Shown piece by piece: positions 14,671-46,423 of a stretch of 53,966 bases of DNA. The position numbers were made by a program, and so were the translations under genes. Origin of the DNA: a virus. Taxonomy: Duplodnaviria; Caudoviricetes. Location: IMG/VR virus record IMGVR_UViG_3300042885_002233, positions 1 to 53,966 of that record, one strand, 5' to 3'. Below the pieces are notes generated by a model. The model worked only from the letters and a program-made list of their open reading frames with translations, made no database searches and was not told the origin of the DNA. The number at the start of each line of letters is the position of its first letter. Position 1 is the stretch's first letter.

Positions 14671-15063
14671 ATGCTCAAAATCTCCCCCATCTTGCCGTCA
14701 AAAAACGAAGAGCAGTTGAAGCAGCAACTCAAGACGCTGCTGGAAGCAGCCTCGGCGTTGAGCGTGACGCTTGACCCGGATGGCTTTGCCCGCTCTTGGT
14801 TGTCTGACAACACCCGGGTGGTGCTGGCCCACGAGGACGACAAGCCCGTTGGGTTTGCCATCATGGCGTTTGGCCGCCGGTATTACGACAGTGCTTTTAC
14901 CGCATCGGTGATCACCGCTGTTGGCCCGGCCCGCCCCCGCGTGCTGGAGTTCATCCTTGAGATGGCCAAAGTGCTGGGCGCAGAAGCTTTGTTCTACGAA
15001 GCCGAAGAGGGTGACACGATCGGCGGCACGCTGGCCAACATGAAGATGGTTGAGGTGACCTGA
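14671..15063 (+). CDS. Small protein, possible GNAT-like tail/ejection assembly factor
   Basis: VLA.EDDKPVGFA and AKVLGA segments. Occupies the slot where podoviruses often have acetyltransferase-like genes. Confidence 0.45.
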   Translation: MLKISPILPSKNEEQLKQQLKTLLEAASALSVTLDPDGFARSWLSDNTRVVLAHEDDKPVGFAIMAFGRRYYDSAFTASVITAVGPARPRVLEFILEMAKVLGAEALFYEAEEGDTIGGTLANMKMVEVT

Positions 15064-19449: not shown

Positions 19450-22400
19450 ATGTCCGATTTCCTCGACCCAAACAAGATCCTTCGTGAACTCCAGCAAAAG
19501 GGTTCGCAGTTTGACCCCGTGGGCGTGACCCTCGGGGACATCCCCTTGTTCAATCCCGCACCGGCGGGCCGCGGTCAAGCCGCGTTCAATCCCTACACCT
19601 CCCCCATCACCGACAAAGAACTCGGTGCCCAAGGTGGCGTGGACATGAGCACGTTCAAAACTGTTAGCGCCATGCAGAGCCAGGCGGAGCGGGAAGCGGA
19701 TCGCCGCGAGCGGGAAGCGGAGCGCAAAGCCCGTGCCGCGGAACGCGATGCGGCGAAAGATCTCAAGACATCCAAGGGCGGCCTGGACGACATCATCCGC
19801 AAAGACCTGGGCTTGGACCCTGCCAGCTCGGTTACCGCCACTACGACACTTGCTGGCGTTGGCGCGGCACCCACGATGCGAATCCGTGCAGAGTTGGATT
19901 GGCCAAGCGTTACCAACTCGCCCGAGTGGAAAGCCCTGCCGGTGGAAGAGCAGGCCAAGCAACGCCCGTTGTGGGTGCAAGCCCGCGTCGGCGAAGCGGT
20001 GGCTCGCGTGGAAGCGGCCGGCTACAAAGTCAAAGACAAAGAGATCGCAGAGCTGCGCAAAAAGTACGACGACCTGACCAAGACCTCGTTGTCGAAAAGA
20101 CCCGAAAGCTCGTGGACCGACACCGACTATTTCGACCGGGCGGTCAAGAGTGTCAAGGACGTGTATCAGGGTGCCCGTTTGGCGTACGGCGATACGGCGA
20201 CACGCGAAGACGCTTTGAAGCAACTCAAAGCCAACGATGTCGAGTGGCAAGCCAACATGAACGCCGTCACCGCCGACAATTTAAAGAAGGCGGCGATGTG
20301 GCGCAACGACATGCTCAACGCCACTGAAAAGACCTCGGGCAAACGCGAGTTGACCGTGGGGCAGGAAGCAGAGATCGCGGCCAAGGTGTTCAACCTTGAT
20401 AAAGTTGGGGCCATCTTGGGTAACCTGCCCACCACCTTGCTGTCTTTGGGGGTGTCAGCCGCAGGTGGATTGGCTGCTGGTGCTGTAACCGGTGGCGCTG
20501 GTGCAGCAGCGGGCGCATCGGCCGCTGGCGCTGCCGTCAACGTACCCCTCACGGTTGCTGACGTTTCGGGCGGCCTGGCCGATACGATCGGCAATATGTC
20601 GGAGCAAGATCTGGCCAAGTCGCCACGTTGGCAAGCGCTCTTGGCTGCCAACAGCGGTAACGTGAACGCAGCCAAGACAGCTTTCATTGGCGAATTGGTG
20701 GACGAAGCCAAGCCATTGGCCTCCGCAATCGGCGGTGCATCTGGTGCGTTGGAAGGCGTCATTGGTGCTGGTAAATTGCTGGGCGTGGGCAAGGCCGCAG
20801 CCGGAAACACCGCTGCAAAAATTACGGAACAGGTGCTGTCCAAAGTGGGGCTGTCTGGCGCAAGCAAAACAGCTGCGCTCAAAACCTTTGCCGCCAACAT
20901 TGGTAAACCTACAGCAGGGTTGATCTCCACCGCCACCGCAAAGGGTATCGGCGGGGAATTGGTACAAGAGTTTGGTGAAGAGGGTGCGGGTCAGGTTGCG
21001 CAAAACCTGGCCATGCGCGCAAAAGATTTGGAGACCGGTATCTTTACCGGTGCAACCGAAGCCGGTGTGAGTGGCGCTCTGACTGGCGCCGGTACTGCAG
21101 CCGGTGCTGCCGTCGGCAAATCGGCATACGGTTCGCTGCTTGGCCCGAAGCGCGATTCCAATGGCGATTTTCTGCTGGTTGAAAAGAACGGCCAGTTGAC
21201 ACGCACAAGCAACGGTAAACTCTCGGCCGCCTCCAATTTGGCAATTGATCAAAACTCCGGCTTGATGCGACTGGTGGATGCCGAGACAGGTAAAGACCCA
21301 GAAGCGAATGCGTTAACAGCGTATCGCAACAACGCCAACGTGTTTAGCAGGGTGGCTAGCGCACAAGGTCTTGACGTAGAAAAAGCGGGTCTGGTTGGCT
21401 CGGCCCTGGCCGCGTCAATGTTTGGCGACCAGGTATCGGCGGTTGCCACCCCAACGATCAACCTGCCGAGCGGCGTGCCAATTCAGTTTAGCGTTAACGG
21501 CAACGGCACAGTAACGCCCGTCATGCCCACAAACGCAACACCGCAGCTGTTGGCCGAGGCACAGAGTGTCGCCGATGCGGCAAACGCCGCAGCTGCCCCT
21601 GTGTTAGAACAAGTCAATGCTTTCTGGGGCCGCACAACCGGCGTTGCTCCTGCGCCTGGTGCATTAACAGCCCGAGGTGTTGTTTCTACGCAACAAACCC
21701 AAACAACCGGAGGCGCAAATGCCATTCAAGTCGGAAGCACAACGCAAGTTCCTGTGGGCAACGGACCCCAAGCTGGCCAAACGGTGGGCCAAGGAAACAC
21801 CCAAGGGCAAGCTCCCGCCCAAGGTCAAGCCCAAACGCAAGTAACGCCTGCGCCTGCGTTTGATACGCAACTGGAAGAGGCGATTCGGCTGACCGCGTAT
21901 GGCGATGAGCGGTCCTTGTTGACCAGCATCTTGGGTCAGCTTCGCAATCCGGGCACGCCTGCCAATGTTCGTCAGTCCCTGGAACAACAGGCACGGGATG
22001 TCATTCAAACAGCACCTCCGTTGGAGCAGGGTCAGCCGCTGCCCAGCGGCGTCTTGGGTGCTCGCGCATCCCTTGGTGAGAACTTCGGCGCAAACCGTCG
22101 TCCCGCCGTGCCGCTTGATGCGGCAACCGCCGCGGCCCGCGCTGCAATGGGAGACCGATCGGTGCCCGCGTTCACGCCACCACCTTTGCCAACGGTTACC
22201 CCGCCTACCGCCGTGCCTGCTGCGCCTGTTGTTTCTACGCAACAAACAGCCGCAACAACACCGCCTGCACCAACATTTACAGCCGGCCAGCAAGTCCAAT
22301 ATCAGGGGCAACCCGCAACAATTGAATCTGTCAACGAGCCTTTAGGGACAGTGACGTTGCGCTTGCCCAACAACTCATCGGTCGGTGTTAACCCAAGCGA

Positions 22401-25400
22401 GGTGACACCTGTTGTTTCTGCGCAACAGTCTGCTGCCGCTGCGCCAACTACGACCCTGAGCCAGCAAGAGCGAGAAGCCCTTGCCGCGGCAGATGGTTCG
22501 GTGCGTCGCTATCGAGACAACGATCGGTTGTCCTACTACGAAAAGTTGCGCGACATCACGAACACCATCAAGCGCACGATTACAACCAACCCGGTGCTCA
22601 ACGATCTGTATGTCAACAACCCGGGCGCGCTGCCAGAAAATCTACAGTGGGCTCGACTCAAGCTGGGCCTTGAGGTCGGCACCAACGTGCATACCGACAC
22701 AATTGGGGAAGCGGTTCGTGCAGCCACCGATCCGCTGACAGCCGTTGCTGATTCCAGCCGCGCCGGCACGGCCAACGCCAATGCTGCAGCAGCAGTGCTC
22801 GACATGTACGCCCAATCGGGTGTCCCAATGCCGACACTGGTATACAGCGATACGACTCCGCCTCGCGGAACTCGGGGCTCGTACTCTTACGGCGGCAATG
22901 CCCACACGGTGACGTTCTTCCGCACCACGACGTTTACGACCATTCCGCACGAATACCTGCACGGCCTGACCGCCAAGGGTTATGCGGCCATGCTCACAGG
23001 GTCACCAGAACAGCGGGATACCGCCGCCTTGTTGCGCCATCTGGCAACCCTGATGCCACAAGAAGCGTACATGACAGCGTTTGGTAATGCACAAAACGCG
23101 CCCTACGAAGCACTGGCTGAGTTGTTCCGGCCGGAGGCTGTTGCCTTCATGTCGCAGAACACCTACGACTTGTCGACCTTCCCACCGGAAGCGCGCCGCG
23201 CAGCCGAGCGCCTGCTGGCCGCGCCCCAGGGCAGGATCTTTGATTTGTTTATGTCGACAATCATCAGCATCCTGCGCACCATCGTGCCCACGCAGCGCCT
23301 GGCCGCCGTTGAGAACAGCCTCGCTGATCTGATGTCCCGCGTGGCCGCCGAAGCTGTGCAAGCAACGGTGCAACGCACCGGCGGTGTATCGCAAGACGGG
23401 GCGTTTGCTGCACCTGCTGCGCCTGCCGCATCGACACAAGCTGCACCGGTGGCGCCACCCGTGTTGCCCGTTTTGCCAGACGCGGTTCGACTTGAAATCT
23501 ACAACAACGCAGTTGCTGCGGGCATACCCGCCAACTGGTTACGAGATACGGCGCGTGGGGTTTATGTCACAGCGCCTATGAACAACCGGGGTGTCGCCGT
23601 TGTGCCGTCGCAGGGCCAACGGTTGGCCCAAGCGTTGCGATACGCAACCGGTTCAGGTTTGCCGTTTAGAGAAGTTACCCCTCCCAGCGGCGGCGGAATG
23701 TTTGTTCTGTTGACTGCACCAGCTGCACCTGCTGCACCAGCTGCACCAGCTGCACCTGCTGCACCGGTGGCGCCAACGGTAGCTCAGTTGGCCATCGGCA
23801 ACCTGAACCAAGCTCAGTCCATGGGGCAAGCAACCGGTTTGCGTGTCGGCGATACGATTACCTTCACGGACCCCATCGGGTATGCAAGCCCCCAAGTGCC
23901 GTATGTTATTGAGGATGTCGGTAATCGCCGCATAGACATACGCAACCCGATCACCGGTGGTGGGACTAGCATTGATGCGTCCGATCTTATCGGCACCGTC
24001 GCGCGCAACCCGGCGTTTAGTTGGACCATCGGGGCGCCAGCACCTGCTGCATCTGCTGCACCAACACAATCAAACCTATCCCCGGAAGCAGAGGCAATCT
24101 TAACCCGATTGGCGCAGACTGCGGTTACAAACGGTGTAACGAGTGACGTTTTGACAGTAATGGTGTCTAACGCTAGTGGCTTGCTCCCCGGGGTTGACAA
24201 CCCGGTGGCCGAGATCAACGCCGTGGCTTTTGCCGAGCAAGAGTTTCAGCGCCTTCGCGCCGCCCAGCAACCAACAGCCACTACCCCCGGCACACCAGTA
24301 GGCCCAGATGAAATGCAGCGCCGCCACGCAGCGGGCGAATCGCTGGCAAGCATATTGGGTGTACGAGCTGTGGGAGATATCTTGACTCAAAGCAGCGGCG
24401 CCACATACAGAGTGGCTGCGATAGTTGGCGATTCGCTTGAGCTGGTAAACATTAGATCCGACGGCACCGAAGGGCAAGCCCGAGTGTTCAGCACCCCCGA
24501 TGTTTTTAACGCACTGGGCTCAACACAAACCTTAACCGCGGGTACGGCTCCCGTTACGCCTGCTGCACCTGCTGCGCCAGCGTCAACGCCAGCACCAGCA
24601 CCAACGAACCAACCGTTGCGCAGCCTCGACACCCGGTTGCCCGGCGACTTGATGCGCACCAGTGAAACGTACGAACAACACCGGGTGAACTTTAGCCGCG
24701 ACTTGGATCGCGCAGCGTGGGTTGCGCGTGGCAATCGAGGTGTCACTGCAAGTGGCAATCCGCGTCGCGCAAGCGCCCGTGACGCACGCATGGTTGCCTT
24801 TGTGCGTTCAATCACCGGTTGGTCAGAATTCCAAGTGCGTCGCCACGGTGACCAAGTTAACAGCGCTGTCGCTGCAGCGGCCCGTCAAGCAGGTAATCCT
24901 GACAGTGACATCCGTCTGGCTATTCAGCCCATCAACGCTCCGTTTGGCACCGCCCCCGCAACGCCGCAACCCGGCACCTTGCTTGGGCGCACGCCTGCGC
25001 CAACGTCGCAACCCGGTTTGCCCGCAACGTACCAAGGTAGGGATAGCAACTCTGACAACGTGCGCGGCGTGGCTACGGGGATCAGCAACCCTGAGTTTTT
25101 GTCCCGCGCAACGCCGCTCGCGCAACTTGTGGTAAGCAACGGCGGTGCACGAAGCGACCGCTATCTGCAAGGCGCGGGTCTGCCAACCACCGTGCTGCCA
25201 GGGCTCGGCACTGATCGGCAAGTCGCCGATACCGCTGTGTCGGACTACCTGACCAACGGCTTGGCTCTGAACATGTCGCCTCAAGTACTGCTTGGCTCCC
25301 CTGCCGTTGGGGATACCATACAGATCAATGCCGCAATAGCTCCAAATGGACCCCGTGCAGATATCACCTACACCGTGCGCGAAGTTTTACCAAACGGCAG

Positions 25401-28400
25401 CTTGCGCGTCGAATCAACACAACTCGCTGGCACTTTCCGCGATCTACGCACAGAAGAGCTGCGCGATATGGCAGCTCGCGGCGCCCGCTGGACAATTAAC
25501 GGTACTGCGTTTGCTGTGCCTCGCAGCGCAGGCGCGGCGCCAACTGCCGTTAGCTCGGACGAACGAAAAACTGCGTTCGACACTTTCGTAAAAGATTACA
25601 TCTCTGCTGCGAACACCAAGCTGCAACAAGCGCTCGCGGGCACAACTACGCTTGAGGAAAAGCGTGCCGTGGGCAAGAACTTGTTTGGCATAAACCCGCC
25701 TCGCAGCAACGGGTATCTCGCGGAAATGAAAGTAACCACTGATCCCCGAGGTGGACTTACCGTTAGCTTTGCTTACAAAGACATGAACGGCGCTGTAGTG
25801 CACACCGGCGCTGCATCTCGCGATTTTCCTACCGGGCAAGTTCACTTCGGGGCCACTGGCTTGACTGAAGGGAGTGGCGAAGGCACACCTTTCTACGACG
25901 CTGTGTATGGTGCAGCAGTTCAAAGCGGTTTGCCTATTCAGGTTACCGGGTTGTACAACGCCAACGTGCGCCGCATGCCCATCAACAGGCTTCGCGCCAT
26001 CTTGCGGTGGGGCACCTACTTCGGTGACCTTAACCGCGCTCAAAAAGTATTGTCCCTTGAAACCGGGCAGATCAAAGATTGGAATACAAGCCAGCGCCTT
26101 TACGCCGGTACGTCTTCCGTAGACGGCCGTGCCCAACTTGACGGTTTGTTTGAGCACGTCGAGGCTTCGCTGACCTCAAGCCTGAACCCCAACGGCGGTC
26201 GCCCTATCGGCTACGACTTTGCTACCAACCAAGTGGTAATCGGGCCCAACCGCACACCCGTTCCGAACTTGTCAGACTGGTTGCGCACACAGTCGGCCAA
26301 CGTAACAGGTCAGTCGCAAGCCTTTGTGAACCGTCCCACTGAGGACAGCGTGCGCTTGGTCGGAATTTTGCGCGAGCTGTCTCGTGCCCCGAATCAAGCA
26401 GCTGCGCAACAGATGATTGATCAACTTACCAATCGTGCAACCGATCGGTTGTTTGACATGCCCTCCGGGGGTACAACCGCTGCACCGATCGACGGACTGT
26501 TTGGCGAACAAGCAGACGAAGCGCCGGTCGGGCCAGAGCCTACCAACGGCACGCCCCCTGGCGGCGGCGGCGGCGGCAAGAAGCTGCTGGCCAAGGGTAC
26601 GGTTGGGCCGCAAGCACAAGGCGACGACATCCTTTTCGATCGCGCACCCGGCGACTTCGCCATCGGCCAAGCCGCGATTCCCGCAACGGATGTTCGCGGT
26701 ATCACCCAAGCCTTGACATCACCCGGCCTGTCCCCCAGGGCCCGCGTGACAAAGGCCAAGCCGTTCTTGCGCAACATCTCGGACTTCGTGGTCGAGCAGT
26801 TCGCCGATTCCCTGATCCCCACGGTGCGCTGGATACAGTCACTGCCTATCGGCGAGCAAGTTAAAGTGAGCCTGCTTGGCTCGATGTACGCGGCTCCCGA
26901 TATCCGTGACACGATCCTTGAGCGTGCCGAGAAAGAGTTCGGCGGCGAGCAGTTGAACCTGTCTTTGAACACCATGTTCAACAAGCTGCGCCAGACCCGC
27001 AAAGATGTGACCCTCGAAGACGTGATCCAAGACGCCGGATACTGGGCCACTGCCCGGTATTCCAAGCTGAAAAACGAGCGCATGCTGGCCGCCGATGAGC
27101 AAGCCGTCATCGAAGCACAGACCCAGGTGGCCGCAGCCCAAGCGCTCAACGCTCCGCAAGCCGAGATCGCCGCGCTGCAAGCCGAAGTCAACCGGTTGGA
27201 AGGTATCTACGAGGACCGCAAGTTTGCCTTGGCCCAGCCCGCCAACACCAACGTGCACGTGGGTCGCCCCGTGCCCTCCGGTGAGCGCCCCCAGATCGGC
27301 CTGGCCGGCGGCTTTAACAACGCCAAAGCCGATGAGGTGATCGCTGCGGCCGAGCGCCAGTTCGGTGCCCAAGCCCTGCAAGAGATGGCCAAGCACCTGT
27401 ACAAGCTGAACGCTTTCCGCATGGCCACCGACATCGTAAGCGGGCGCACCGACCCGGCCCAGGCCGCGTTGTTCTCGCCCGAGTTGGAAGCCTTGCTGCC
27501 CGAGATGCAGCGTTTGGCGCAGATCAGCGCCGACCCCAACGGCAACCAACGTGCCCTGGATCAAGCACGCCGCGACTTTGTGAATAAGCTGGCCAACACC
27601 TCCACCTACGTGCCCACCACCGGCGACCCCGAGCAGGGCTTTGAGATGGACGTGCTGGGCAGCGGGTTCAAGACCCCCAACACCGCGCGCGACAAGCGCC
27701 TGCTGGGCCGCTCTACCTCGCTGGCCAACGACGGCATCACCGCATCGCTTGGCGGCATGCAGCGATCCGCCTCGGCTGCGGGCTGGAACAAGTTCACCGC
27801 CCAGATCGAGAGCGTCTACGACTCGATGACCGATGCGCAGCGCGACGACGCTGGCATTGCCCGCGTGCCGATTACCGCGCTCGACCGTTTGAGCGACAAC
27901 ATGATCATCCGCAACCAACCGGACGGATCGGCCGTTGGCTACACCATCAAGGACGGCAAGGTGCTGCAGGCGCTGCGCAAAGAGAACGTCGAGGATCGCT
28001 CTTCGGTGATGCGGGTCATGGAAATTCCCAACCAGATCTTCGCCCGTTTGGCCACCCGCTACAACCTGCCGTTCGGCCCGATCAACGCGCTGCGCGACGT
28101 GTGGGAGCGCTCCGAGAACATGCGTGCCCGCGAATACTTCACGCCCGGGGGCAAGAAGCTGGACTCCGACAAGCTGGCCCGCCGCATGATCGAGATCGCC
28201 CGCCAGCCCGGCGTGCTGAAAGACCTGACCTCGTACTACTGGGCCCAGGCCCAGGGCAAACCGCAACCCAATTCGGTTTACTCCAACTACATGCGCGAGT
28301 TCGAGGAACTGGGCGGAGGCGGCAGCAAGTACGGCGCTTCGATTTCCCGGGACCGCAAGAGCCTGGTGGCCGACGTGGCTGCGGCCAAGGGCGGCGTGAT

Positions 28401-29655
28401 CAAGCCAACCTACGAGTTCATCAACAAGTACGTCAACTTCTGGAACGATTCGTTCGATGGCGTGGCACCGCTGGCCGCCTACGTGGCGATGCGCCAAGGC
28501 GGCATGTCCAAAGAAGCGGCGGCCCAGGGTGCCAAGGATCTGATGAACTTCCGCAAGTCGGGCGCGTTTATGCCGCTGGTGCGAGCAATCTACGCCTTTG
28601 CCCAGCCTACGGTGACAGGTGCTGTCAACCTGGCCAACACACTCAAGACCAGGACCGGTCAAAAGCGTTTCATGGGTTACGCCGTGGCGATGTTTGCGAT
28701 CCAGTCTATCTTGGCTGCAGCCGGTGGCGAAGATGAAGAGACGGGCAAGAACCTGTTCGATTCGCTGGACGACTACGCCCGTGAGCGCAGCTTACCTTTG
28801 CCCATCCCAGGTACCAACGAGTTCTTGAAGATGCCTATTGGCTTCGGCTTGCCGCTGATGGCCCACCTTGCGGCCCTGCGCTCACGCGACCTGGCCGGTG
28901 GCGAGGCCACCCCGGGCGAGACTATCAGCTCGGTGTTGACGGACATCGCCCAAACGATAACGCCGTTGCAGGCATCCAAGATCGCGTTAAGCGATTCGCC
29001 GATTCGCGCCGCTGTGCAAACCTTGACGCCAACCTTTGCGAAACCAATCGCCAACATAGCGATCAACCGAGGTGGCCTTGGCCAGCAGATCGTGCGCGAA
29101 GAGTTCTTTGCCAAGGGCGACGAGGCACGCTTCCGAGCCGAGCAAGGTGCACCGCTGACCGCCGAGTTCTACAAGGACACGGCCAAGTTTGTGCAGTCCA
29201 CATTCGGCCTGGACTTTGCGCCAGAAGAGATCAAAGAACTTAGCTCCCTGTTCAGCTTGGGTCTGTTCCGTAACCTGCAGCAAGCGGTCATCGACAACCC
29301 GAACAAAGAACTGCAGGGTCGCCCAACCGCCACACCCATCATCGGTAGCTTCGTGGTCTCGGCAGACAATGCGCTGGTGCGGGATTCGCGCAAGTTCGAG
29401 GCGACCGCGCAGGAGCTGGTCAAGCGCCGCAACAGTAACCCCGAGACGGAGTTCTCGCCGCAGGAAGAGCAGACACTGGAGCAATACGCACAGTGGCTGG
29501 CCCTGGAAACAGAGTTCCGCAAACGCGGCGCTGCGCTGACACGGGCCGGGGTGGACAAGGGTGTCGATCCGGCCCGCCTGGAACTGCGTCAAGAACGAAC
29601 CGCTGCGCAAGCGGATCTGCTAAGACAGTTCAACGCGACTCGGCAAACACCTTGA
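19450..29655 (+). CDS. Giant (3401 aa) polyvalent internal virion protein with zincin motif and LPD38-like C-terminus
   Basis: N-terminal Gly/Ala hydrophobic region with E...E.GEE motifs, HEYLH motif, Ala-Pro linkers. C-terminal N..RD, A...K.L.NF.K.G and LKMPIGFG segments resemble LPD38-bearing proteins. Confidence 0.8.
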   Translation: MSDFLDPNKILRELQQKGSQFDPVGVTLGDIPLFNPAPAGRGQAAFNPYTSPITDKELGAQGGVDMSTFKTVSAMQSQAEREADRREREAERKARAAERDAAKDLKTSKGGLDDIIRKDLGLDPASSVTATTTLAGVGAAPTMRIRAELDWPSVTNSPEWKALPVEEQAKQRPLWVQARVGEAVARVEAAGYKVKDKEIAELRKKYDDLTKTSLSKRPESSWTDTDYFDRAVKSVKDVYQGARLAYGDTATREDALKQLKANDVEWQANMNAVTADNLKKAAMWRNDMLNATEKTSGKRELTVGQEAEIAAKVFNLDKVGAILGNLPTTLLSLGVSAAGGLAAGAVTGGAGAAAGASAAGAAVNVPLTVADVSGGLADTIGNMSEQDLAKSPRWQALLAANSGNVNAAKTAFIGELVDEAKPLASAIGGASGALEGVIGAGKLLGVGKAAAGNTAAKITEQVLSKVGLSGASKTAALKTFAANIGKPTAGLISTATAKGIGGELVQEFGEEGAGQVAQNLAMRAKDLETGIFTGATEAGVSGALTGAGTAAGAAVGKSAYGSLLGPKRDSNGDFLLVEKNGQLTRTSNGKLSAASNLAIDQNSGLMRLVDAETGKDPEANALTAYRNNANVFSRVASAQGLDVEKAGLVGSALAASMFGDQVSAVATPTINLPSGVPIQFSVNGNGTVTPVMPTNATPQLLAEAQSVADAANAAAAPVLEQVNAFWGRTTGVAPAPGALTARGVVSTQQTQTTGGANAIQVGSTTQVPVGNGPQAGQTVGQGNTQGQAPAQGQAQTQVTPAPAFDTQLEEAIRLTAYGDERSLLTSILGQLRNPGTPANVRQSLEQQARDVIQTAPPLEQGQPLPSGVLGARASLGENFGANRRPAVPLDAATAAARAAMGDRSVPAFTPPPLPTVTPPTAVPAAPVVSTQQTAATTPPAPTFTAGQQVQYQGQPATIESVNEPLGTVTLRLPNNSSVGVNPSEVTPVVSAQQSAAAAPTTTLSQQEREALAAADGSVRRYRDNDRLSYYEKLRDITNTIKRTITTNPVLNDLYVNNPGALPENLQWARLKLGLEVGTNVHTDTIGEAVRAATDPLTAVADSSRAGTANANAAAAVLDMYAQSGVPMPTLVYSDTTPPRGTRGSYSYGGNAHTVTFFRTTTFTTIPHEYLHGLTAKGYAAMLTGSPEQRDTAALLRHLATLMPQEAYMTAFGNAQNAPYEALAELFRPEAVAFMSQNTYDLSTFPPEARRAAERLLAAPQGRIFDLFMSTIISILRTIVPTQRLAAVENSLADLMSRVAAEAVQATVQRTGGVSQDGAFAAPAAPAASTQAAPVAPPVLPVLPDAVRLEIYNNAVAAGIPANWLRDTARGVYVTAPMNNRGVAVVPSQGQRLAQALRYATGSGLPFREVTPPSGGGMFVLLTAPAAPAAPAAPAAPAAPVAPTVAQLAIGNLNQAQSMGQATGLRVGDTITFTDPIGYASPQVPYVIEDVGNRRIDIRNPITGGGTSIDASDLIGTVARNPAFSWTIGAPAPAASAAPTQSNLSPEAEAILTRLAQTAVTNGVTSDVLTVMVSNASGLLPGVDNPVAEINAVAFAEQEFQRLRAAQQPTATTPGTPVGPDEMQRRHAAGESLASILGVRAVGDILTQSSGATYRVAAIVGDSLELVNIRSDGTEGQARVFSTPDVFNALGSTQTLTAGTAPVTPAAPAAPASTPAPAPTNQPLRSLDTRLPGDLMRTSETYEQHRVNFSRDLDRAAWVARGNRGVTASGNPRRASARDARMVAFVRSITGWSEFQVRRHGDQVNSAVAAAARQAGNPDSDIRLAIQPINAPFGTAPATPQPGTLLGRTPAPTSQPGLPATYQGRDSNSDNVRGVATGISNPEFLSRATPLAQLVVSNGGARSDRYLQGAGLPTTVLPGLGTDRQVADTAVSDYLTNGLALNMSPQVLLGSPAVGDTIQINAAIAPNGPRADITYTVREVLPNGSLRVESTQLAGTFRDLRTEELRDMAARGARWTINGTAFAVPRSAGAAPTAVSSDERKTAFDTFVKDYISAANTKLQQALAGTTTLEEKRAVGKNLFGINPPRSNGYLAEMKVTTDPRGGLTVSFAYKDMNGAVVHTGAASRDFPTGQVHFGATGLTEGSGEGTPFYDAVYGAAVQSGLPIQVTGLYNANVRRMPINRLRAILRWGTYFGDLNRAQKVLSLETGQIKDWNTSQRLYAGTSSVDGRAQLDGLFEHVEASLTSSLNPNGGRPIGYDFATNQVVIGPNRTPVPNLSDWLRTQSANVTGQSQAFVNRPTEDSVRLVGILRELSRAPNQAAAQQMIDQLTNRATDRLFDMPSGGTTAAPIDGLFGEQADEAPVGPEPTNGTPPGGGGGGKKLLAKGTVGPQAQGDDILFDRAPGDFAIGQAAIPATDVRGITQALTSPGLSPRARVTKAKPFLRNISDFVVEQFADSLIPTVRWIQSLPIGEQVKVSLLGSMYAAPDIRDTILERAEKEFGGEQLNLSLNTMFNKLRQTRKDVTLEDVIQDAGYWATARYSKLKNERMLAADEQAVIEAQTQVAAAQALNAPQAEIAALQAEVNRLEGIYEDRKFALAQPANTNVHVGRPVPSGERPQIGLAGGFNNAKADEVIAAAERQFGAQALQEMAKHLYKLNAFRMATDIVSGRTDPAQAALFSPELEALLPEMQRLAQISADPNGNQRALDQARRDFVNKLANTSTYVPTTGDPEQGFEMDVLGSGFKTPNTARDKRLLGRSTSLANDGITASLGGMQRSASAAGWNKFTAQIESVYDSMTDAQRDDAGIARVPITALDRLSDNMIIRNQPDGSAVGYTIKDGKVLQALRKENVEDRSSVMRVMEIPNQIFARLATRYNLPFGPINALRDVWERSENMRAREYFTPGGKKLDSDKLARRMIEIARQPGVLKDLTSYYWAQAQGKPQPNSVYSNYMREFEELGGGGSKYGASISRDRKSLVADVAAAKGGVIKPTYEFINKYVNFWNDSFDGVAPLAAYVAMRQGGMSKEAAAQGAKDLMNFRKSGAFMPLVRAIYAFAQPTVTGAVNLANTLKTRTGQKRFMGYAVAMFAIQSILAAAGGEDEETGKNLFDSLDDYARERSLPLPIPGTNEFLKMPIGFGLPLMAHLAALRSRDLAGGEATPGETISSVLTDIAQTITPLQASKIALSDSPIRAAVQTLTPTFAKPIANIAINRGGLGQQIVREEFFAKGDEARFRAEQGAPLTAEFYKDTAKFVQSTFGLDFAPEEIKELSSLFSLGLFRNLQQAVIDNPNKELQGRPTATPIIGSFVVSADNALVRDSRKFEATAQELVKRRNSNPETEFSPQEEQTLEQYAQWLALETEFRKRGAALTRAGVDKGVDPARLELRQERTAAQADLLRQFNATRQTP

Positions 29656-30484
29656 CGCATTCCTCCATCGTAGCGCGGTGCAACGCAAGCACCGGCTCGA
29701 TGGAGCCTTCGCTGTCCCTGGAATAACCTCCGGCCAGGTTCCAGGCAACGGGCACGCCCTGGCTGTGGCATTTGCCGAACACGATCGCATCGCGCATCCG
29801 CATCTGCTGCGTGGTGTAAACGCCACCCAGCGGATCGTCGATGTGGGCGTCAGCACCGGCTTGATACAACACGATGTCAACGTCGGGCAGGTGCTTGTCC
29901 AGCGTCGATGCCAAGTTATCAAGCGCGTCTTCGCCGCTGAGACTGCGCGCGCCTAAAGAATGCAACGTGATCCAATCCGTGCTGCCAAGCGTTGTGATGA
30001 TGTCTTCGCACCCGTTTGAGAAATGATAGTCCTCATCAACGATAAGGGCACGCTTGATCAGGCCGCGCTCTCGCAACTTGTACAGCGTAACCATCAGCCC
30101 GTTGAAGGTGCAAAAACCCCCGCCGAAATCGTAACCGGCGTGGTGAAAGCCGGACACCGGGGCACACGCGACTTGCTTGTTCATCAATGCAAGATGCGCC
30201 GCTTCGTACATTGCCCCCACGGTGTAGCGCAAGGACTCGGCAACGGCCAGATCCTTATTGCCAAAGCCGTTGAACTCTTCTCCGGTGAAGATGGCTTGCA
30301 CATACTTCGGATCGTGCGCCCGCTCAAGGCTTTGCAAATCAATCGCCTCCGGCTGAATCAGCGTGACGGCGAAATCCCGCACCAGCCAATCGTCGACAAC
30401 CTGCCGGGGTTTGTTGGAGCTAGGGGAATACGATGCGGTTTGCACCGACATCTCGGGGCGATACAAAACTGGAATGTTTTTCAT
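29630..30484 (-). CDS. Histone deacetylase-family (Zn-dependent) amidohydrolase
   Basis: GFHHAG, GGFCTFN, D.DYH..NG, YQAGAD.H.DDPLGG and AGGYS motifs are all intact. Confidence 0.93.
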   Translation of the reverse strand: MKNIPVLYRPEMSVQTASYSPSSNKPRQVVDDWLVRDFAVTLIQPEAIDLQSLERAHDPKYVQAIFTGEEFNGFGNKDLAVAESLRYTVGAMYEAAHLALMNKQVACAPVSGFHHAGYDFGGGFCTFNGLMVTLYKLRERGLIKRALIVDEDYHFSNGCEDIITTLGSTDWITLHSLGARSLSGEDALDNLASTLDKHLPDVDIVLYQAGADAHIDDPLGGVYTTQQMRMRDAIVFGKCHSQGVPVAWNLAGGYSRDSEGSIEPVLALHRATMEECVKVFAESR

Positions 30485-30507
30485 GGTGGTGGTCCTTTAA
30501 AGAACGC

Positions 30508-30537
30508 AGTCTACCATAAAACTTTATGCGGTGTCAA
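30508..30537 (-). promoter_or_regulatory. Sigma70-like promoter of the deacetylase gene, with operator in the spacer
   Basis: - strand TTGACA-18-TAGACT with extended TG. Spacer reads ACCATA-N6-TATGCG on the + strand. Confidence 0.75.
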
Positions 30538-31967
30538 GCGTTCCCTAACAAACTGACAACAAGGTCCTGCAGTTCCATTTTGTTTTCTACCTTGTGGTAG
30601 ATGTCGGCGTCCAGGGTGCCCCGTGCCATCACCCGATACACGTTTACCGCCCGGTTGTAGCCAGACTGCAACTGCCGCAGCGGGCCTGCCCGTTCAATTG
30701 CTTGCTCCCAGTCATCAGCACGGTAGGTTGGTTCAATGAATATCATCGACCGCCCGCCGTGCTGCAGGCTCAGGCCCATCGAGCCGCGCTGATACTGAAT
30801 GGCAAGCAGCTTAATCTTTCCTGCGTTCCAATCGGCCTGCACAACACCGTTCCTATCAAGCTCCACCAATTTATTCTTGAAGCGCTTTTTCAAAAGATCG
30901 AGCGTCGCTTTGTGGTGGTAAAAAACAATTTGGTTTTCACCAGTCTCTTCGAGGATAGATTCAACGGCGTCAACTTTGGCGTCATGTAAATGAGTGCACT
31001 TCTGAAGATCGGGATCTTCGTCCTCGTCTTTCCAGTAAGAAAAACCGGAAGAAATTTGAGAAAGGCGTGCCACCTTTGCAGCGGCCGACTGTACTGAAAC
31101 TGTCCGTGTCAGCATGCCGTCGCGGATCTCCGTGACCATGCGTTCGCGCATCTCTTTGTACTGTTTCATCGCAGCGGCAGGGATCTCAACAACACGGTCG
31201 ATGACATTGGGTTTGGCCACGTCAATGTAGTCTTCAATCCGGACCACTGTTGTTATGTCGCGAGTGCGTGCCGCGATTTCCTCTATCGCCCCCGGTAAAG
31301 GAATGGGTTTAGCAAAATCAGTGTGCCGGTTTGGCAAAGAAAACCAGCGTTGCTCAAACGCACTGAAGCTGTTGCCCAACCGATGGCCGCCGTCTACGTA
31401 CCACACCAAAGGCCACCAATCCAAAGGGCCGTTCGGGACGGGCGTCGCCGTCATGCTCAACCAAAAAGTAAAGTCGCCAGCGTGCTTTGCAAGCGCGTTT
31501 GTTTGAACACCACCATCGGTACGCAGAAACCGTTTGCCAAGAGTTGAGGTTTGCCAAGACGCCCGAGTACCGCGTAGCCTGGTGGCCTCATCACAGACCA
31601 TCATGTCCCCAAAAGCCGACCAGTCCTTTGGCCCGTACTTGTCAAGCCAGGGAAGGTTGTCGTAGTTCATGAGGTATACATCGGCGGATGCTTTTAACGC
31701 CTGCTCTCGCTCACCCTTCGCGCCCGTGATCATAGACACCTTTGCATTCGGGAGCCAGTTTGGGATTTCACTTTTCCAGTTCAGGCACACCTGAAGCGGC
31801 GCAAGGATGAACATGCCTGGCCACCGACCGGTTGCGAACTCACGGCTTGATGCGAGCATCAGAGCGGCCCCTGATTTGCCGGTGCCTGGGTTAGCCAGCA
31901 GGATGTGTCGATCAGACCTGGCCATGCCCCGCAGCATCGCGAGCTGGGGTGCGCGGGGTAGCCTCAC
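30534..31967 (-). CDS. SNF2-like superfamily 2 helicase
   Basis: PGTGKS, CDEA, MTATP.PN and GLSLQ.GG...QA.ER..R motifs. Likely GTG start overlapping the upstream TGA. Confidence 0.9.
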   Translation of the reverse strand: MRLPRAPQLAMLRGMARSDRHILLANPGTGKSGAALMLASSREFATGRWPGMFILAPLQVCLNWKSEIPNWLPNAKVSMITGAKGEREQALKASADVYLMNYDNLPWLDKYGPKDWSAFGDMMVCDEATRLRGTRASWQTSTLGKRFLRTDGGVQTNALAKHAGDFTFWLSMTATPVPNGPLDWWPLVWYVDGGHRLGNSFSAFEQRWFSLPNRHTDFAKPIPLPGAIEEIAARTRDITTVVRIEDYIDVAKPNVIDRVVEIPAAAMKQYKEMRERMVTEIRDGMLTRTVSVQSAAAKVARLSQISSGFSYWKDEDEDPDLQKCTHLHDAKVDAVESILEETGENQIVFYHHKATLDLLKKRFKNKLVELDRNGVVQADWNAGKIKLLAIQYQRGSMGLSLQHGGRSMIFIEPTYRADDWEQAIERAGPLRQLQSGYNRAVNVYRVMARGTLDADIYHKVENKMELQDLVVSLLGNA

Positions 31968-32185
31968 TCCAAAATCTCCACAAAATTCCGTGTCTCGATC
32001 CACACCCGGGCGCCACACGACAGCGGCTTGTCGGGCGAATACACCACCTCGCTTGGCCCATGAATGGCCACGCGATGCGCGTATCGGTTGTCCTTGTACG
32101 TCTTGACCGTGAGCACGGGGTCGCGCGCACCGGTACGAGCATTGGCCTTGATGACGTGCTGATTGACGTGAATGATTGTTTTCAT
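31964..32185 (-). CDS. Small conserved-looking phage protein
   Basis: IIHVNQHVI...VYSPDKPLSCGARVWIET, coupled at both ends. Confidence 0.7.
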   Translation of the reverse strand: MKTIIHVNQHVIKANARTGARDPVLTVKTYKDNRYAHRVAIHGPSEVVYSPDKPLSCGARVWIETRNFVEILE

Positions 32186-32391
32186 TCTTTGCTTTCCAAC
32201 TCGATCAACAGGTCAACAAAGTGCTTGATCTTTTCCAAGTCCTTGACGCCGCCTTTGTCGCGCCAGCGAGAAGCGTATTTGATTATGCAGCCCTCGATGA
32301 AAGGGATGTTGTTAGCGTGAATGAATTGAACCGGCTGGATCTTCATCTTGCGATAGTGATCACCTTGCACCTGGCTATCTAGTGCGCTCAT
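32182..32391 (-). CDS. DUF3310 protein (T7 gp1.7-like nucleotide kinase family)
   Basis: QV.GDHY, G..IKY..RW..KGG..DL.K motifs. Confidence 0.85.
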   Translation of the reverse strand: MSALDSQVQGDHYRKMKIQPVQFIHANNIPFIEGCIIKYASRWRDKGGVKDLEKIKHFVDLLIELESKE

Positions 32392-32392
32392 T

Positions 32393-32791
32393 TCAGTTCT
32401 CCTGTGGTTCAAACTCTTTTTTCAGTTCTTCGTATTGCTTCAGTCGCTCATTGCGAGTCGCAAGCATCACGCGCTCTTTTTCGTGCGCCGCAATCACATC
32501 CAGAGCTTCTTGGTATTCAATGCCTTGGGCTTGCGACAAAATCCCGGCCTTGACCATTTGCTCTTTGGAAAGACGGCGGTAACTTTGGTGACAGATAGAC
32601 GGGCCGTTACCTTGGACTTCCTCAATCTGAAACACCATGTATGTGCCATCCGTGAAAGTCAGGACCAAGGGGTCGATGGAAAATTCGGTGATCTTCTCAA
32701 TGCGCTTGCCGACAGCTTGGTCTGCATTACCCCACCCGCGCATTGAAACAGCATCACGCAGCGCAACGGCGGCTTTTACTTTGTCATTCAT
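32393..32791 (-). CDS. Hypothetical protein
   Basis: AGGAG RBS before the ATG at 32791. Confidence 0.6.
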   Translation of the reverse strand: MNDKVKAAVALRDAVSMRGWGNADQAVGKRIEKITEFSIDPLVLTFTDGTYMVFQIEEVQGNGPSICHQSYRRLSKEQMVKAGILSQAQGIEYQEALDVIAAHEKERVMLATRNERLKQYEELKKEFEPQEN

Positions 32792-32804
32792 TTCAGTTCT
32801 CCTG

Positions 32805-33059
32805 TTAATTTGTTGGAATTTCCACTGGCCTTGTGCAACTCTTTCCGCAGCCTTCTCTCCACTCCATTTTTGACTGCCCGTTTTCGCAGCGCACAAAGTA
32901 CCTACGATACCCATCCTCAAAGCGATAAACAGTGCATCCATCCTTTGTGAACAACGTGTCAACTTTAAAATCGGCGTTGTTTGTTGTTGATGTCTCGGCT
33001 GCTGGTTTTGAGCACCCCGCCAAAAGAATCAATGCGGCGCAAGCAATTAGTGTTTTCAT
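32805..33059 (-). CDS. DUF4884-like lipoprotein
   Basis: Lipobox LAG|C, V..LF..DGCTVYRF.D motif. Confidence 0.75.
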   Translation of the reverse strand: MKTLIACAALILLAGCSKPAAETSTTNNADFKVDTLFTKDGCTVYRFEDGYRRYFVRCENGQSKMEWREGCGKSCTRPVEIPTN

Positions 33060-33271
33060 TCTTCTCTCCATTTACAGCCAACACATCCGGGGTCGGCCTT
33101 CCCGAGTTCAGTCTTGCGAAATTGGCAGTCTCTTGTAAAGACATTGGGCCACTCTCGGGTAACCACCTCAGTGGTCATGCCGCCGGGTTTTCCGCCAGTT
33201 GAAATTGCTTCCAAAGACACAGTTTTAAACGTGTCTTTGTGTGGTGCATGGTTGTGACAACCGTATGTCAT
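33056..33271 (-). CDS. Small Cys/His protein
   Basis: YGCHN...C......DPGC.GC.W, ATGA-coupled. Confidence 0.6.
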   Translation of the reverse strand: MTYGCHNHAPHKDTFKTVSLEAISTGGKPGGMTTEVVTREWPNVFTRDCQFRKTELGKADPGCVGCKWREE

Positions 33272-33483
33272 CGGTTGATCTCGTTCAGCGTCTTGCCAGG
33301 ATCGAGATTCAGGTCCTCGCAAATCTTGACGTAATTCGAGAGGCGCAAATCGCGAGCATCTTTTTCGATGGTGGCCAGTGTCGTGGCGTGCACACCGGAT
33401 GATGCGGCCATGCTGTACCAGGTCTTGCCCTGGGCCAAGCGCTCTTGCTTCATTCGCTTGGCAAATTGTTTCAGAAGTTTCAT
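33268..33483 (-). CDS. XRE-family helix-turn-helix regulator
   Basis: R...G.T...MA..SGV...TL..IE......L....KI...L pattern. Confidence 0.85.
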   Translation of the reverse strand: MKLLKQFAKRMKQERLAQGKTWYSMAASSGVHATTLATIEKDARDLRLSNYVKICEDLNLDPGKTLNEINR

Positions 33484-33782
33484 GGTGTTGCTTTCAAAAT
33501 GTTATCGACAAATTCTTGCACCTGCTCGACGCCGTACAAAATGTGAACCTTGAACCCCCGTTTCTCGATGCGAGGGAACAGGATCGCTTGGCTGGCTTCG
33601 AGCTTCCCGGAAAGCTGCTTCAACTCCACGAAGTAGAAGCGTCCGCCGGGCATCAGCACCAACCGGTCGGGTGCACCCATCGTGCCGATGAAGTTGAGCT
33701 TCAGACACAACCCGCCAAGTGTTCGGACGGATTGTACCAGAACTTTTTCTGCGTCGGCTTCGATTATTTTTGAGTATCGCAT
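33480..33782 (-). CDS. VRR-NUC nuclease
   Basis: E...E, G.PDR, FVELK and Q motifs. Confidence 0.9.
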   Translation of the reverse strand: MRYSKIIEADAEKVLVQSVRTLGGLCLKLNFIGTMGAPDRLVLMPGGRFYFVELKQLSGKLEASQAILFPRIEKRGFKVHILYGVEQVQEFVDNILKATP

Positions 33783-33946
33783 TCGCGCAACTCCCGAATC
33801 ACTTTGCGCAGTTCAAAAGTTTCATCCCGCAAGTCTTGAATGTATTGCGCCCGGCTGACGCGCAGTTGTTCTGCTTCCCAAAGCTCCGATTGCAGTGCCG
33901 CGATTCTCTTGAGCCCGAAGGGGTCGGTAAAAAATTCTTTGATCAT
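33764..33946 (-). CDS. Small coiled-coil protein
   Basis: TGAAAG RBS, 60 aa. Confidence 0.55.
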   Translation of the reverse strand: MIKEFFTDPFGLKRIAALQSELWEAEQLRVSRAQYIQDLRDETFELRKVIRELRECDTQK

Positions 33947-33957
33947 GGTGTGGTCTT

Positions 33958-35754: not shown

Positions 35755-35826
35755 CAGTCTCGGTGGGTTTGGTGAGGGCTGCCGCTGTCTCACTCGAAGG
35801 GGGTGTGCTGCGCAACCCTCGCCAAA

Positions 35827-35852
35827 CCCGACTGAGCCGAAGCCCAGTCGGG
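35827..35852 (-). terminator. C(UUCG)G hairpin after the SSB gene
   Basis: - strand CCCGACTGGGC-TTCG-GCTCAGTCGGG followed by TTT. Confidence 0.6.
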
Positions 35853-35860
35853 AGAACCGT

Positions 35861-36640
35861 TTAGAACGGAGCGCCTGGGAAGGCGGGCGCTGATGGCGAA
35901 GCGAACTGCGGTGCGGCCGGTGCAGCGAACTGCGGTGCGGCCGGTGCAGCGAACTGCGGTGCGGCCGGTGCAGCGAACTGCGGTGCGGCTGGTGCAGCGC
36001 CGATTGCAGCGGTTGGAGCAGCGCCGATCGCAGCGGTCGGAGCAGCGGCTGCGCCAAACGCCGATTCGTCTGCTGTCACACCACCGCCGAAGCGTTCGCC
36101 GTCAGCTGCAAACTGAACCAAAAGTTGGTCGCAAGCCACCCCATCAGCACCTTTATCGTAAGCCCAGAAATTGACCTCGATGTTGACGTAGCAACCGCTG
36201 TAGATACGGTTCTGTGGGCGATTCAAAACCGCAGGGCGGCCGGAGCCAGGAGCGTCTTCAAAGATGTCAAGCAATTTAGGCGGCTGATTCTCGCGGGCGT
36301 TGGCCTGCAGGAACATGTTGCCCAAGTAGCCGTCTTTGTCGGCGTTCAAAGCACCGTTCTTGAACGGGATCTTGTTGTTGGCATGGATTTGCGTCCACTT
36401 GATCTGCGCCTTGTCACCAAACTTGGCGGACACGGCAGCCCACATGGCAGCTTGGATGGCTTGGATTGCAGCGGTCTCAGTCTCAGGCACAAAATACACA
36501 CAAGAAAACTGAGGTTTGGCGCCAGCTTGTGCTTTGGCGTTGACGCGGGCTTCGTTCAAGCCGTTGGCGTAGCCGATACGCACGTTGCGAATGATGACTT
36601 TGGTGGGCACGGAAGCGTTTGGGGTAACAGTAACTGACAT
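35861..36640 (-). CDS. DUF2815 single-stranded DNA-binding protein
   Basis: NVRI.Y, IYSGCYVN and VQFA.DGERFGG motifs, repeat tail ending PF. Confidence 0.88.
   Translation of the reverse strand: MSVTVTPNASVPTKVIIRNVRIGYANGLNEARVNAKAQAGAKPQFSCVYFVPETETAAIQAIQAAMWAAVSAKFGDKAQIKWTQIHANNKIPFKNGALNADKDGYLGNMFLQANARENQPPKLLDIFEDAPGSGRPAVLNRPQNRIYSGCYVNIEVNFWAYDKGADGVACDQLLVQFAADGERFGGGVTADESAFGAAAAPTAAIGAAPTAAIGAAPAAPQFAAPAAPQFAAPAAPQFAAPAAPQFASPSAPAFPGAPF
35901..36050 (-). repeat. 24-bp coding repeats (AAPAAPQF x4, GAAPTAAI-like x2)
   Basis: Visible tandem unit gcagcgaactgcggtgcggccggt. Confidence 0.9.
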
Positions 36641-36704
36641 ATCAAACTTTCATGTGAGCCGGTTGAGAAGTCAGATCAGTTGCTCAAGCTGATCTGGTGA
36701 GTGA

Positions 36705-36734
36705 ATTGTAGCAGAACTTTTTATGTTCGTGCAA
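36705..36734 (-). promoter_or_regulatory. Promoter plus operator upstream of SSB
   Basis: TTGCAC-18-TACAAT with extended TG, operator AGCAGA-N6-TATGTT. Confidence 0.75.
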
Positions 36735-39141: not shown

Positions 39142-39171
39142 ATTGTAGCATAACTTTTTAAGCTATGCGAA
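39142..39171 (-). promoter_or_regulatory. Promoter plus operator
   Basis: TTCGCA-18-TACAAT, operator AGCATA-N6-TAAGCT. Confidence 0.7.
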
Positions 39172-42118: not shown

Positions 42119-42148
42119 ATCATAGCAGAACTTTTTATGCTTGTGCAA
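42119..42148 (-). promoter_or_regulatory. Promoter plus operator
   Basis: TTGCAC-18-TATGAT, operator AGCAGA-N6-TATGCT, nearly identical to 36705-36734. Confidence 0.75.
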
Positions 42149-46393: not shown

Positions 46394-46423
46394 ATTGTAG
46401 CACAAAATTTTATGCTGTGTGAA
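46394..46423 (-). promoter_or_regulatory. Promoter plus operator
   Basis: TTCACA-18-TACAAT, operator AGCACA-N6-TATGCT. Confidence 0.7.

Follow-up and report, generated by a model that had tools for sequence, protein, structure and literature searches.

A compact HDAC-family gene at the convergence of the virion and replication arms of a freshwater phage genome

The virus record IMGVR_UViG_3300042885_002233 of IMG/VR, which carries a completeness rating of 95%, was analyzed over its whole length of 53,966 bp (hereafter the window). Near-identical DNA was found across many lake-water metagenome runs, and the source is a freshwater phage. The genome is built of two convergent arms, with virion genes on the plus strand and replication genes on the minus strand, which run into each other at 29630-29655. 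The replication arm ends with a gene for a protein of the HDAC (histone deacetylase) family, P0001, and this gene overlaps tail to tail the gene of a giant virion protein, P0002, that comes after the internal virion protein and SLT transglycosylase genes (Table 1). An initial annotation of the window had described this overlap correctly and had proposed that the two genes encode an acetylation writer/eraser pair, in which P0002 carries a GNAT-like acetyltransferase segment. The HDAC-family enzyme was found to be intact and to belong to a widespread and apparently mobile group, and its occurrence in related phages was found to be independent of that segment.

P0001 matched the Pfam family PF00850 with an E-value of 1e-26 (94.5 bits, cut-off 27.9). 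The catalytic set H114-H115, D150/D152/H154, D212 and Y254 (in the motif AGGY) aligns to the catalytic residues of the bacterial enzyme VcHdaH and is invariant across 21 family members. Judged by its sequence, P0001 is an intact Zn-dependent HDAC-family enzyme with every catalytic residue kept, in agreement with the initial annotation, which had pointed to the His-His dyad, the Zn ligands and the GGY tyrosine. No PHROG family, PADLOC model or NCBIfam model matched P0001, and megablast of positions 25650-33000 returned no match in the phage collection. The gene is not a fresh insertion, because its GC content (0.574) and its GC content at third codon positions (0.716) equal those of the genome and of neighboring genes, including the DNA polymerase gene. 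The best solved relatives of P0001 were structures of VcHdaH (9gkv/9gky, E 6.1e-21, query residues 44-268). The HDAC11 homologue 9rje matched over nearly the full length (E 2.1e-19), and 9gz5 and 9rjd matched at E 3.2e-8. HDAC6, acetylpolyamine amidohydrolase (APAH) and HDAC8 matched at E 2.4e-14 to 6e-6, but only over about 60-90 residues around the active site. Within this range HDAC8 stood at about 6e-6 over about 70 residues and APAH (3q9b) at 4.2e-9 over residues 106-178 only, and full-length similarity to APAH was not seen.

The residues preceding the catalytic histidines were compared with those of characterized relatives. P0001 reads PVSGFHH at this site, and F113 aligns with the foot-pocket gatekeeper tyrosine of VcHdaH; relative to the class IV motif GGG[FY]HH or SGGYHH, which replaces RPP-HH, the aromatic residue is present and the glycine run is one residue shorter. 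VcHdaH belongs to bacterial cluster 5b, a cluster that also holds human HDAC11, and is described as a selective lysine de-decanoylase (PMC11532494). Within class IV, clade B comprises long-chain fatty-acyl deacylases with a Phe/Tyr gatekeeper in the foot pocket, and clade A carries Thr or Ser there (PMC13325672). The aromatic gatekeeper is described as the mark of a peptide-active fatty-acyl deacylase clade (PMC13325672, PMC11532494). On these alignments P0001 is nearer to the class IV and cluster 5 deacylases than to AcuC or APAH, and for this reason the label of acetyl eraser is itself uncertain; the acyl group preferred by P0001 may be one other than acetyl. P0001 falls in a large branch of about 285 amino acids that is nearest to class IV and cluster 5 and has an N-terminal SYSPSxxKP motif.

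At least 7058 relatives in this branch were counted among 8000 candidates scored, and the closest homologues of P0001 share 55-99% identity with it. An HDAC relative was encoded by 208 of 239 pattern matches in IMG/VR and, among the matches listed, by at least 549 of 600 in species-representative genomes and at least 583 of 600 in metagenomes. HDAC-family genes were present in 7 of 50,697 deposited phage records. Single-protein scans of IMG/VR with the HDAC, the flagged segment of P0002 and the P0002 C-terminus returned no relatives, nor did a single-protein scan of metagenomes, and the collections compared may lack records near-identical to the window. A FastTree phylogeny was computed from 216 HDAC sequences; in it the viral copies are intermingled with genomic and metagenomic ones, and the nearest neighbors of the window HDAC are one unrelated viral contig and copies from metagenome-assembled genomes of Planctomycetes.

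The neighborhoods of 80 bacterial and 80 viral HDAC loci were inspected. A WYL-domain regulator lay within a few genes of the HDAC in 24 of the 80 bacterial loci, and integrase, DUF2779, NUDIX, IetA-like AAA+ and VWA/TY-Chap genes were found nearby in various loci. These settings look like genomic islands, and they may include a WYL-controlled island module that is so far undescribed. The WYL-adjacent loci include L083, L084, L087, L090, L093, L102, L135 and L150. Methylobacter psychrophilus carries an inverted duplicate of a block of NUDIX, a 79-amino-acid protein and HDAC (L087 4300-6831 and 10518-12749), and in Deefgea chitinilytica two HDAC copies lie 48 kb apart on one contig (L092, L093). 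Near the viral HDACs were found DnaB (20 loci), adenylosuccinate-synthetase-like (10), 5'-3' exonuclease (10) and ribonucleotide reductase (8) genes; the viral loci probably derive from a small number of large-phage lineages, so these counts are not independent. About 18 of the HDAC-bearing viral contigs carry paired sheath-like proteins of about 1010 and 1040 amino acids, and examples of viral loci are L025 6467-7588, L004 3080-4456 and L005 4545-9619. In the HDAC-bearing phage contig G026 (locus L027) the HDAC again lies amid replication genes (helicase, dCTP-deaminase-like, DUF2800 and DNA polymerase).

The HDAC gene of the window has a sigma70-like promoter of its own, as the initial annotation had stated. 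Its -10 hexamer is preceded by TG (an extended -10, TGn), and the TGA stop codon of the SNF2 helicase gene falls within its -35 hexamer. No other sigma70-like match was found in 25000-37000, and shuffled sequences averaged 3.8 there, so the consensus match alone is no better than chance. The spacer, however, is occupied by the palindrome CATAAAgtTTTATG (30515-30528), and the pattern CATAAANNTTTATG, allowing up to two mismatches, occurs in seven copies in the window against 0.89 expected, a count reached in 0 of 100 shuffles. All seven copies lie on the minus-strand arm, and six of them sit at one and the same place in front of genes of the replication arm, flanked by the -35 and -10 hexamers. 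Because of this excess and this positioning the shared promoter element is taken to be real, and the HDAC gene therefore owns one member of a six-member phage promoter family. A count by eye found the spacer of this promoter to agree with that of the promoter at 46401 in 14 of 18 positions. The phage operator of the initial annotation stands as a recurrent promoter-spacer element; the palindrome would be a candidate repressor site, a reading that goes beyond the recurrence itself, and part of it is accounted for by the extended -10. A weak terminator-like hairpin lies 16 nt beyond the HDAC stop codon, and the terminator-like sites in the region number 14 against 14.0 expected from shuffles.

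P0002 is, from its domain content, an LPD38-type phage polyvalent protein as described by Iyer et al. 2017 (PMC5512222). LPD38 (PF18857, E 1.5e-13) was its only Pfam match at E <= 0.1, and it matched the 3427-position family phrog_14770 with an E-value of 3.4e-33. Its C-terminal 1000 amino acids match 135 phage records (Vibrio, Ralstonia, Burkholderia and others), none of which, compared by organism name, is among the seven HDAC-holding phage records. The initial annotation had assumed an injected protein; P0002 is of the polyvalent, LPD38-type kind, and by analogy with such proteins it is probably injected into the host. A HEYLH sequence in P0002 was read as an HExxH motif, and its context ...T[VI]xHExxHxLTxxG is kept in eight of 13 relatives, with a different HEILHH in two more; no Pfam model matched this region of P0002, which resembles the zincin-type peptidase modules to which the cutting of polyvalent proteins is ascribed. 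Four similar stretches of about 45 amino acids (residues ~975-1000, 1480-1530, 1655-1700 and 1975-2020) lie between Ala/Pro-rich linkers, have the form vGD.i......Y.V..v....l.v and, by eye in the translation, look like a small repeated beta domain.

The middle of the giant gene may differ between populations. In four lake-water runs, coverage at 85% likeness was low or absent in bins from 25268 to 26218, a gap that by itself counts as no finding, and 26536-33500 was covered. Contigs of two other lake-water runs (X2 and X3) match the window to the right of 26569 and diverge leftwards, and one contig of X10 links 25916 to 26400 with the intervening letters undefined. The region around 26560-26570, a Gly-rich linker near residue 2371, is also the site of a 9-nt deletion variant. 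These observations are hints that populations may carry different mosaics of the middle of the gene, whereas they share the HDAC gene, the helicase gene and the C-terminal third of P0002.

GNAT domains of two RimI-like families have been described in polyvalent proteins, and solo GNATs among late structural genes (PMC5512222). The GNAT-like segment proposed in P0002 was examined as a module of about 250 amino acids. The flagged peptide VHFGATGLTEGSGEGTPFYDAVYGAA begins at residue 2131 (nt 25840), and the module core spans residues 2131-2175 (nt 25840-25974). A search of 1.84 billion representative proteins with the surrounding segment, residues 2035-2347, gave 13 relatives, each of them part of a protein of 1183-3236 amino acids, and the 50,697 phage records contained no match. 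The core runs in the order strand, Gly-rich loop, G-x-x-FYD-x-x-YGA, short strand and N-x-x-R-M-P-I-N-R-L-R-A-x-L-K-W-G. The Gly-rich loop, EGSGEG, precedes a helix, and only its last glycine is invariant among 14 sequences, compared with Q/RxxGxG/A for motif A of GNATs. A model of the module predicted by AlphaFold2 from the 14-sequence alignment was of moderate quality (predicted local distance difference test score, pLDDT, 64.9; predicted template-modelling score, pTM, 0.62); it runs from a helix through four strands to a second helix, a further strand and a long helix. When this model was compared with the PDB by Foldseek, 18 of the 44 rows listed were MYST acetyltransferases, at E 0.019-0.23 and template-modelling (TM) scores of 0.25-0.30, and no PDB match reached E <= 0.001. 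Against BFVD the top match was another polyvalent protein (E 1.2e-4), followed by a NAT_SF domain protein (E 2.9e-3), and seven of the 50 rows listed, that protein and six others, were labelled acetyltransferase or NAT_SF. No GNAT sequence model matched the module (Pfam, PF00583, NCBIfam, PDB profile search); as a control, PF00583 matched 14 of 14 known genomes, and the window genome had no PF00583 match. A word-index search of the module alignment (A2) over longer proteins returned only P0131, and an Atlas feature search of the segment gave a best score of 0.84, a lead at most. A GNAT-like nature of the module is possible and unproven, because the acetyltransferase matches are repeated but weak and none is significant save that to the polyvalent protein. 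The initial annotation had thus flagged a conserved module with recurring structural resemblance to acetyltransferases. An N-acyltransferase-type fold is considered slightly more likely than not, and activity as an acetyltransferase less likely than not.

The second GNAT-like open reading frame of the initial annotation, P0003, exists and is predicted with confidence to adopt the fold. An Atlas structure search gave TM scores of 0.71-0.79 to GNAT clusters, and an AlphaFold2 model from 20 homologues (pLDDT 91.7) had 134 PDB matches at E <= 0.001, the best at 3.8e-8, with GNAT acetyltransferases in all top rows; on these results the assignment is considered right. The P0003 family lacks the Q/RxxGxG/A loop for coenzyme A, with the consensus GPARxxxLEF in its place. 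The model ends after strand 5 (residues 106-108), so that helix 4 and strands 6-7, the C-terminal third of the fold, are missing, and no GNAT hidden Markov model (HMM) matched P0003 in Pfam, PF00583 or NCBIfam. P0003 may be a reduced or non-catalytic GNAT. Kinship between P0003 and the module was considered and rejected: profile comparison of A2 with P0003 and with A3 gave probabilities of 1.6% and 0.4%, and a shared 'GRxYYD'-like string is regarded as chance.

The proposed coupling was examined by the co-occurrence of its parts. Only one IMG/VR record was found with the module (G001, locus L162; 64.7 kb, rated 100% complete). It encodes an internal virion protein (41% identity), directly followed by a P0003 homologue, a giant protein and a SNF2 helicase, and it has no HDAC. 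Conversely, among 79 HDAC-bearing viral records searched whole, three (G002, G026 and G075) encode an LPD38 giant protein, and none of the three has the module, a P0003 family member or a PF00583 GNAT. The HDACs of these three phages rank 55th, 108th and 165th of 215 by tree distance from the window HDAC. G026 shares the convergent layout and has related DUF2800 and DNA polymerase genes, and its HDAC lies elsewhere in the replication arm, between small open reading frames and the dCTP-deaminase-like gene, about 8 kb from the end of the giant gene. HDAC and module thus appear to be inherited independently in relatives, so that an acetylation on/off pair is improbable; on this point the initial annotation was not upheld, since it had itself named such independence as an outcome that would count against the pair. 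Taken together, the interleaving of the tree and the scattered co-occurrence favor repeated, independent capture of a mobile gene. An earlier count of 0 of 240 for LPD38, from tblastn of P0002 against 241 loci (the only match being L162), was discarded as too insensitive, because the LPD38 HMM found a giant gene within the range of L027 itself. Apparent joints inside the HDAC gene that fell short of a likeness of 95, such as 29754 to 30090, were likewise set aside as probably homologues from other organisms.

Table 1 Features of the window discussed in the text.
Feature	Position	Strand	Basis or detail
Head and structural protein genes	plus-strand arm	+	
Internal virion protein gene	13043-14668	+	
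GNAT-fold protein gene (P0003)	14671..15063	+	130 amino acids; directly 3' of internal virion protein gene
SLT transglycosylase gene	18544-19407	+	
Giant polyvalent virion protein gene (P0002)	19450..29655	+	3401 amino acids
HEYLH (HExxH) motif, candidate zincin-type peptidase module	22948..22962	+	residues 1167-1171; read in P0002
Conserved module of about 250 amino acids	25639..26490	+	residues 2064-2347; 13 relatives, alignment A2, model, Foldseek
LPD38 domain of P0002	28750..29286	+	residues 3101-3279; Pfam
Weak terminator-like hairpin	29600..29614	-	16 nt beyond HDAC stop, within last giant-gene codons
Tail-to-tail overlap of HDAC gene and giant gene	29630..29655	both	26 bp
HDAC-family Zn-dependent deacylase gene (P0001, predicted)	29630..30484	-	284 amino acids; last of replication arm
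Ribosome-binding site AAGGA	30493..30497	-	8 nt ahead of ATG at 30484; read from sequence
Sigma70-like promoter TTGACA-18-TAGACT before HDAC gene	30508..30537	-	-35 30537-30532, -10 30513-30508
SNF2-family helicase gene	30534..32018	-	upstream of HDAC gene
DNA polymerase gene	33958-36057	-	
DUF2800 gene	36721-37905	-	
Primase/VapE-type protein gene	39179-41509	-	
Sister-promoter spacer elements	36712..36725, 39149-39162, 42126-42139, 46401-46414, 51443-51456	-	

Two other features of the genome were observed. A NUMOD3-motif, homing-endonuclease-like open reading frame lies on the opposite strand within the structural arm (8422-9210, minus strand), with a local GC dip to 0.528. The DUF2800 gene, of the PD-(D/E)XK nuclease type, is common to the window and the distantly related, HDAC-bearing G026 (L027 12360-13526).

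The explanation that we favor, if only slightly beyond an even chance, is that of a mobile accessory deacylase that is made with the replication genes, removes acyl groups from lysines of host or phage proteins, and lies beside the giant gene only by convergence of the two arms. It includes, at the same modest level of confidence, that P0001 is an active, compact Zn-dependent deacylase of the HDAC fold, as its sequence predicts, and that its gene is an accessory one, passed around among phages and the genomic islands of bacteria. The observed enzyme family, intact active site, promoter family and distribution suggest the following course, of which the timing, the substrate and the independence of function are what we infer. 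The HDAC gene would be transcribed by the host RNA polymerase from its own promoter, of the family that would also drive other replication-arm genes. In early to mid infection P0001 would hydrolyze acyl groups, acetyl or longer, on lysines of host and possibly phage proteins, and this deacylation would reset acylation that limits the host machinery or that the host imposes. The overlap with the giant gene would be a matter of geometry, a consequence of the place where the two arms converge. P0002 itself would be polyvalent and probably injected, with a module that is perhaps acyltransferase-like but has no dedicated HDAC partner.

Several points weigh against this explanation. The activity and substrate of P0001, and of the whole branch of about 285 amino acids, are predictions from sequence. 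Clade A, of which 9rje scores nearly as well as VcHdaH, is described as inactive on peptides (PMC13325672), and because of this a non-protein substrate is a real possibility. The neighbors of viral HDACs are often nucleotide-metabolism genes, and this may hint at a substrate that is a small molecule or a nucleic acid. The HDAC phylogeny was built quickly with FastTree, and the window sequence sits on a long branch in it. The co-occurrence result is based on few genomes, one with the module and three with HDAC and LPD38; much of the viral set is fragmentary, with a completeness rating of 90% or more for 13 of the 80 records searched (G001 among the 13), and the set was assembled without the contigs of the closest HDAC homologues. 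Finally, a local functional link between the two genes is possible, because the HDAC gene and the giant 3' end stay next to each other in two or more further lake-water runs, whose contigs (X2 record 21 and X16 record 12) bridge the junction with 15 differences over about 1 kb.

This kept junction also counts in favor of the circuit originally proposed, in which the injected module or a virion-associated P0003 would acylate a target at entry and the HDAC, made soon after, would remove the mark. HDAC, module and P0003 do occur in one genome, P0003 has a GNAT fold, the module repeatedly resembles acetyltransferases (the MYST rows in the PDB and the BFVD rows, at best E 2.9e-3), and the precedents of GNATs in polyvalent proteins and of solo GNATs in late structural clusters are in its favor (PMC5512222). 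The distributions of HDAC and of module and P0003 are nevertheless independent, the module model is of pLDDT 64.9 with neither a PDB match at E <= 0.001 nor a GNAT HMM, P0003 lacks the Q/RxxGxG/A loop and everything past strand 5, and the nearest HDAC relatives are described as favoring long acyl chains (PMC11532494). Such a circuit is thus considered improbable. An ambitious extension, in which the class IV-like deacylases of about 285 amino acids form a mobile 'acyl-eraser' family employed by phages and genomic islands in conflicts over protein acylation, here timed after an injected acyltransferase-like module in a lineage that keeps the junction with the giant gene, would make this the first phage writer/eraser pair, and is considered just as improbable. 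A role in counter-defense, with the enzyme stripping acyl groups set on phage or host components by host acyltransferase toxins or defenses, is unlikely but is the least unlikely of the alternatives. The island-like settings of the bacterial homologues would suit it, with WYL regulators (which PADLOC labels CRISPR-associated signalling proteins) and IetA-like AAA+, NUDIX, DUF2779 and integrase genes, as would the sporadic occurrence of phage copies, which is usual for anti-defense genes. The HDAC itself matched no PADLOC model, however, and no acyltransferase-based defense was linked to it in the loci examined. Moreover, known GNAT toxins target aminoacyl-tRNA, which is no known HDAC substrate.

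Two further alternatives would place the enzyme in small-molecule metabolism. As an N-acetylpolyamine deacetylase it would free spermidine or putrescine for replication and packaging, and its location in the replication arm would agree with this. Giant-virus APAHs have been proven to release spermidine, and phages encode spermidine acetyltransferases (PMC9992855). The match of P0001 to APAH is distant and partial, however, whereas class IV-type enzymes match at full length, and the survey in PMC9992855 reported APAH homologues in Imitervirales only; auxiliary polyamine metabolism therefore seems a little less likely than counter-defense. A deacetylase acting on a nucleotide or modified-DNA intermediate of phage nucleotide metabolism would explain the DnaB, adenylosuccinate-synthetase-like, 5'-3' exonuclease and ribonucleotide reductase genes near viral HDACs and the position of the L027 HDAC directly before a dCTP-deaminase-like gene. 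These loci may come from few related lineages, however, and no hypermodification genes lie beside the window HDAC. We know of no HDAC-fold enzyme with a nucleotide or modified-DNA substrate, and this is considered the least probable alternative.

With the pairing idea weakened, what remains is a real, uncommon and uncharacterized accessory phage enzyme of a known family. HDAC-fold enzymes are almost unstudied in phages, although at least 208 IMG/VR contigs carry the compact branch. No paper linking PF00850 or class IV HDACs to phages was found in the literature searched, and the article texts of PMC11532494 and PMC13325672, supplements aside, contain no mention of phages or viruses. If phage HDACs strip acyl groups from host proteins, this would amount to editing of the host acyl-proteome and to a so far undescribed layer of takeover. 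The P0002 module, if truly acyltransferase-like, would add a third such family to the polyvalent proteins.

Comparison with known systems places these proteins as follows. The polyvalent-protein GNATs of Iyer et al. 2017 (PMC5512222) share with P0002 the setting of a giant multi-domain LPD38 virion protein with a possible acyltransferase-like module, but they are RimI-like and recognizable by sequence, whereas the P0002 module matches no GNAT model; the text of that paper contains no occurrence of 'deacetylase' and describes no deacetylase partner. P0003 is small, has a GNAT fold and is encoded at the margin of the structural genes, and in this it resembles the solo GNATs of PMC5512222 and the phiKMV-type Rac (PMC7552054). 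Among cultured phages, gp202 of Rhodococcus phage E3, annotated as a 'putative histone deacetylase protein', matches P0001 with 33% identity over 95% of the query (E 5e-24), but that phage is a 143-kb actinophage with an unrelated genome context. We know of no functional study of this protein. The APAH of Imitervirales, as described in PMC9992855, is likewise a virus-carried HDAC-fold enzyme that undoes an acetylation; it differs in belonging to the APAH cluster, in its giant eukaryotic virus carriers and in its polyamine substrates, and its match to P0001 is weak and partial. Within the class IV HDACs (human HDAC11 and clades A and B; PDB 9RJE, 9RJD; PMC13325672), the Phe gatekeeper of P0001 matches the clade B signature, a likeness based on pairwise matches and a motif and not on a reference tree. 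VcHdaH (PDB 9GKV/9GKY, PMC11532494) is longer (318 against 284 amino acids), reads DSDVHHGDG where P0001 reads DEDYHFSNGC, and stands apart from the separate branch of P0001; de-decanoylase activity is described for VcHdaH. The two enzymes nevertheless share the His-His dyad, D-x-D-x-H, GAD...DPLG and GGY, together with an aromatic gatekeeper before the histidines, SGFHH in P0001 and SGGYHH in VcHdaH.

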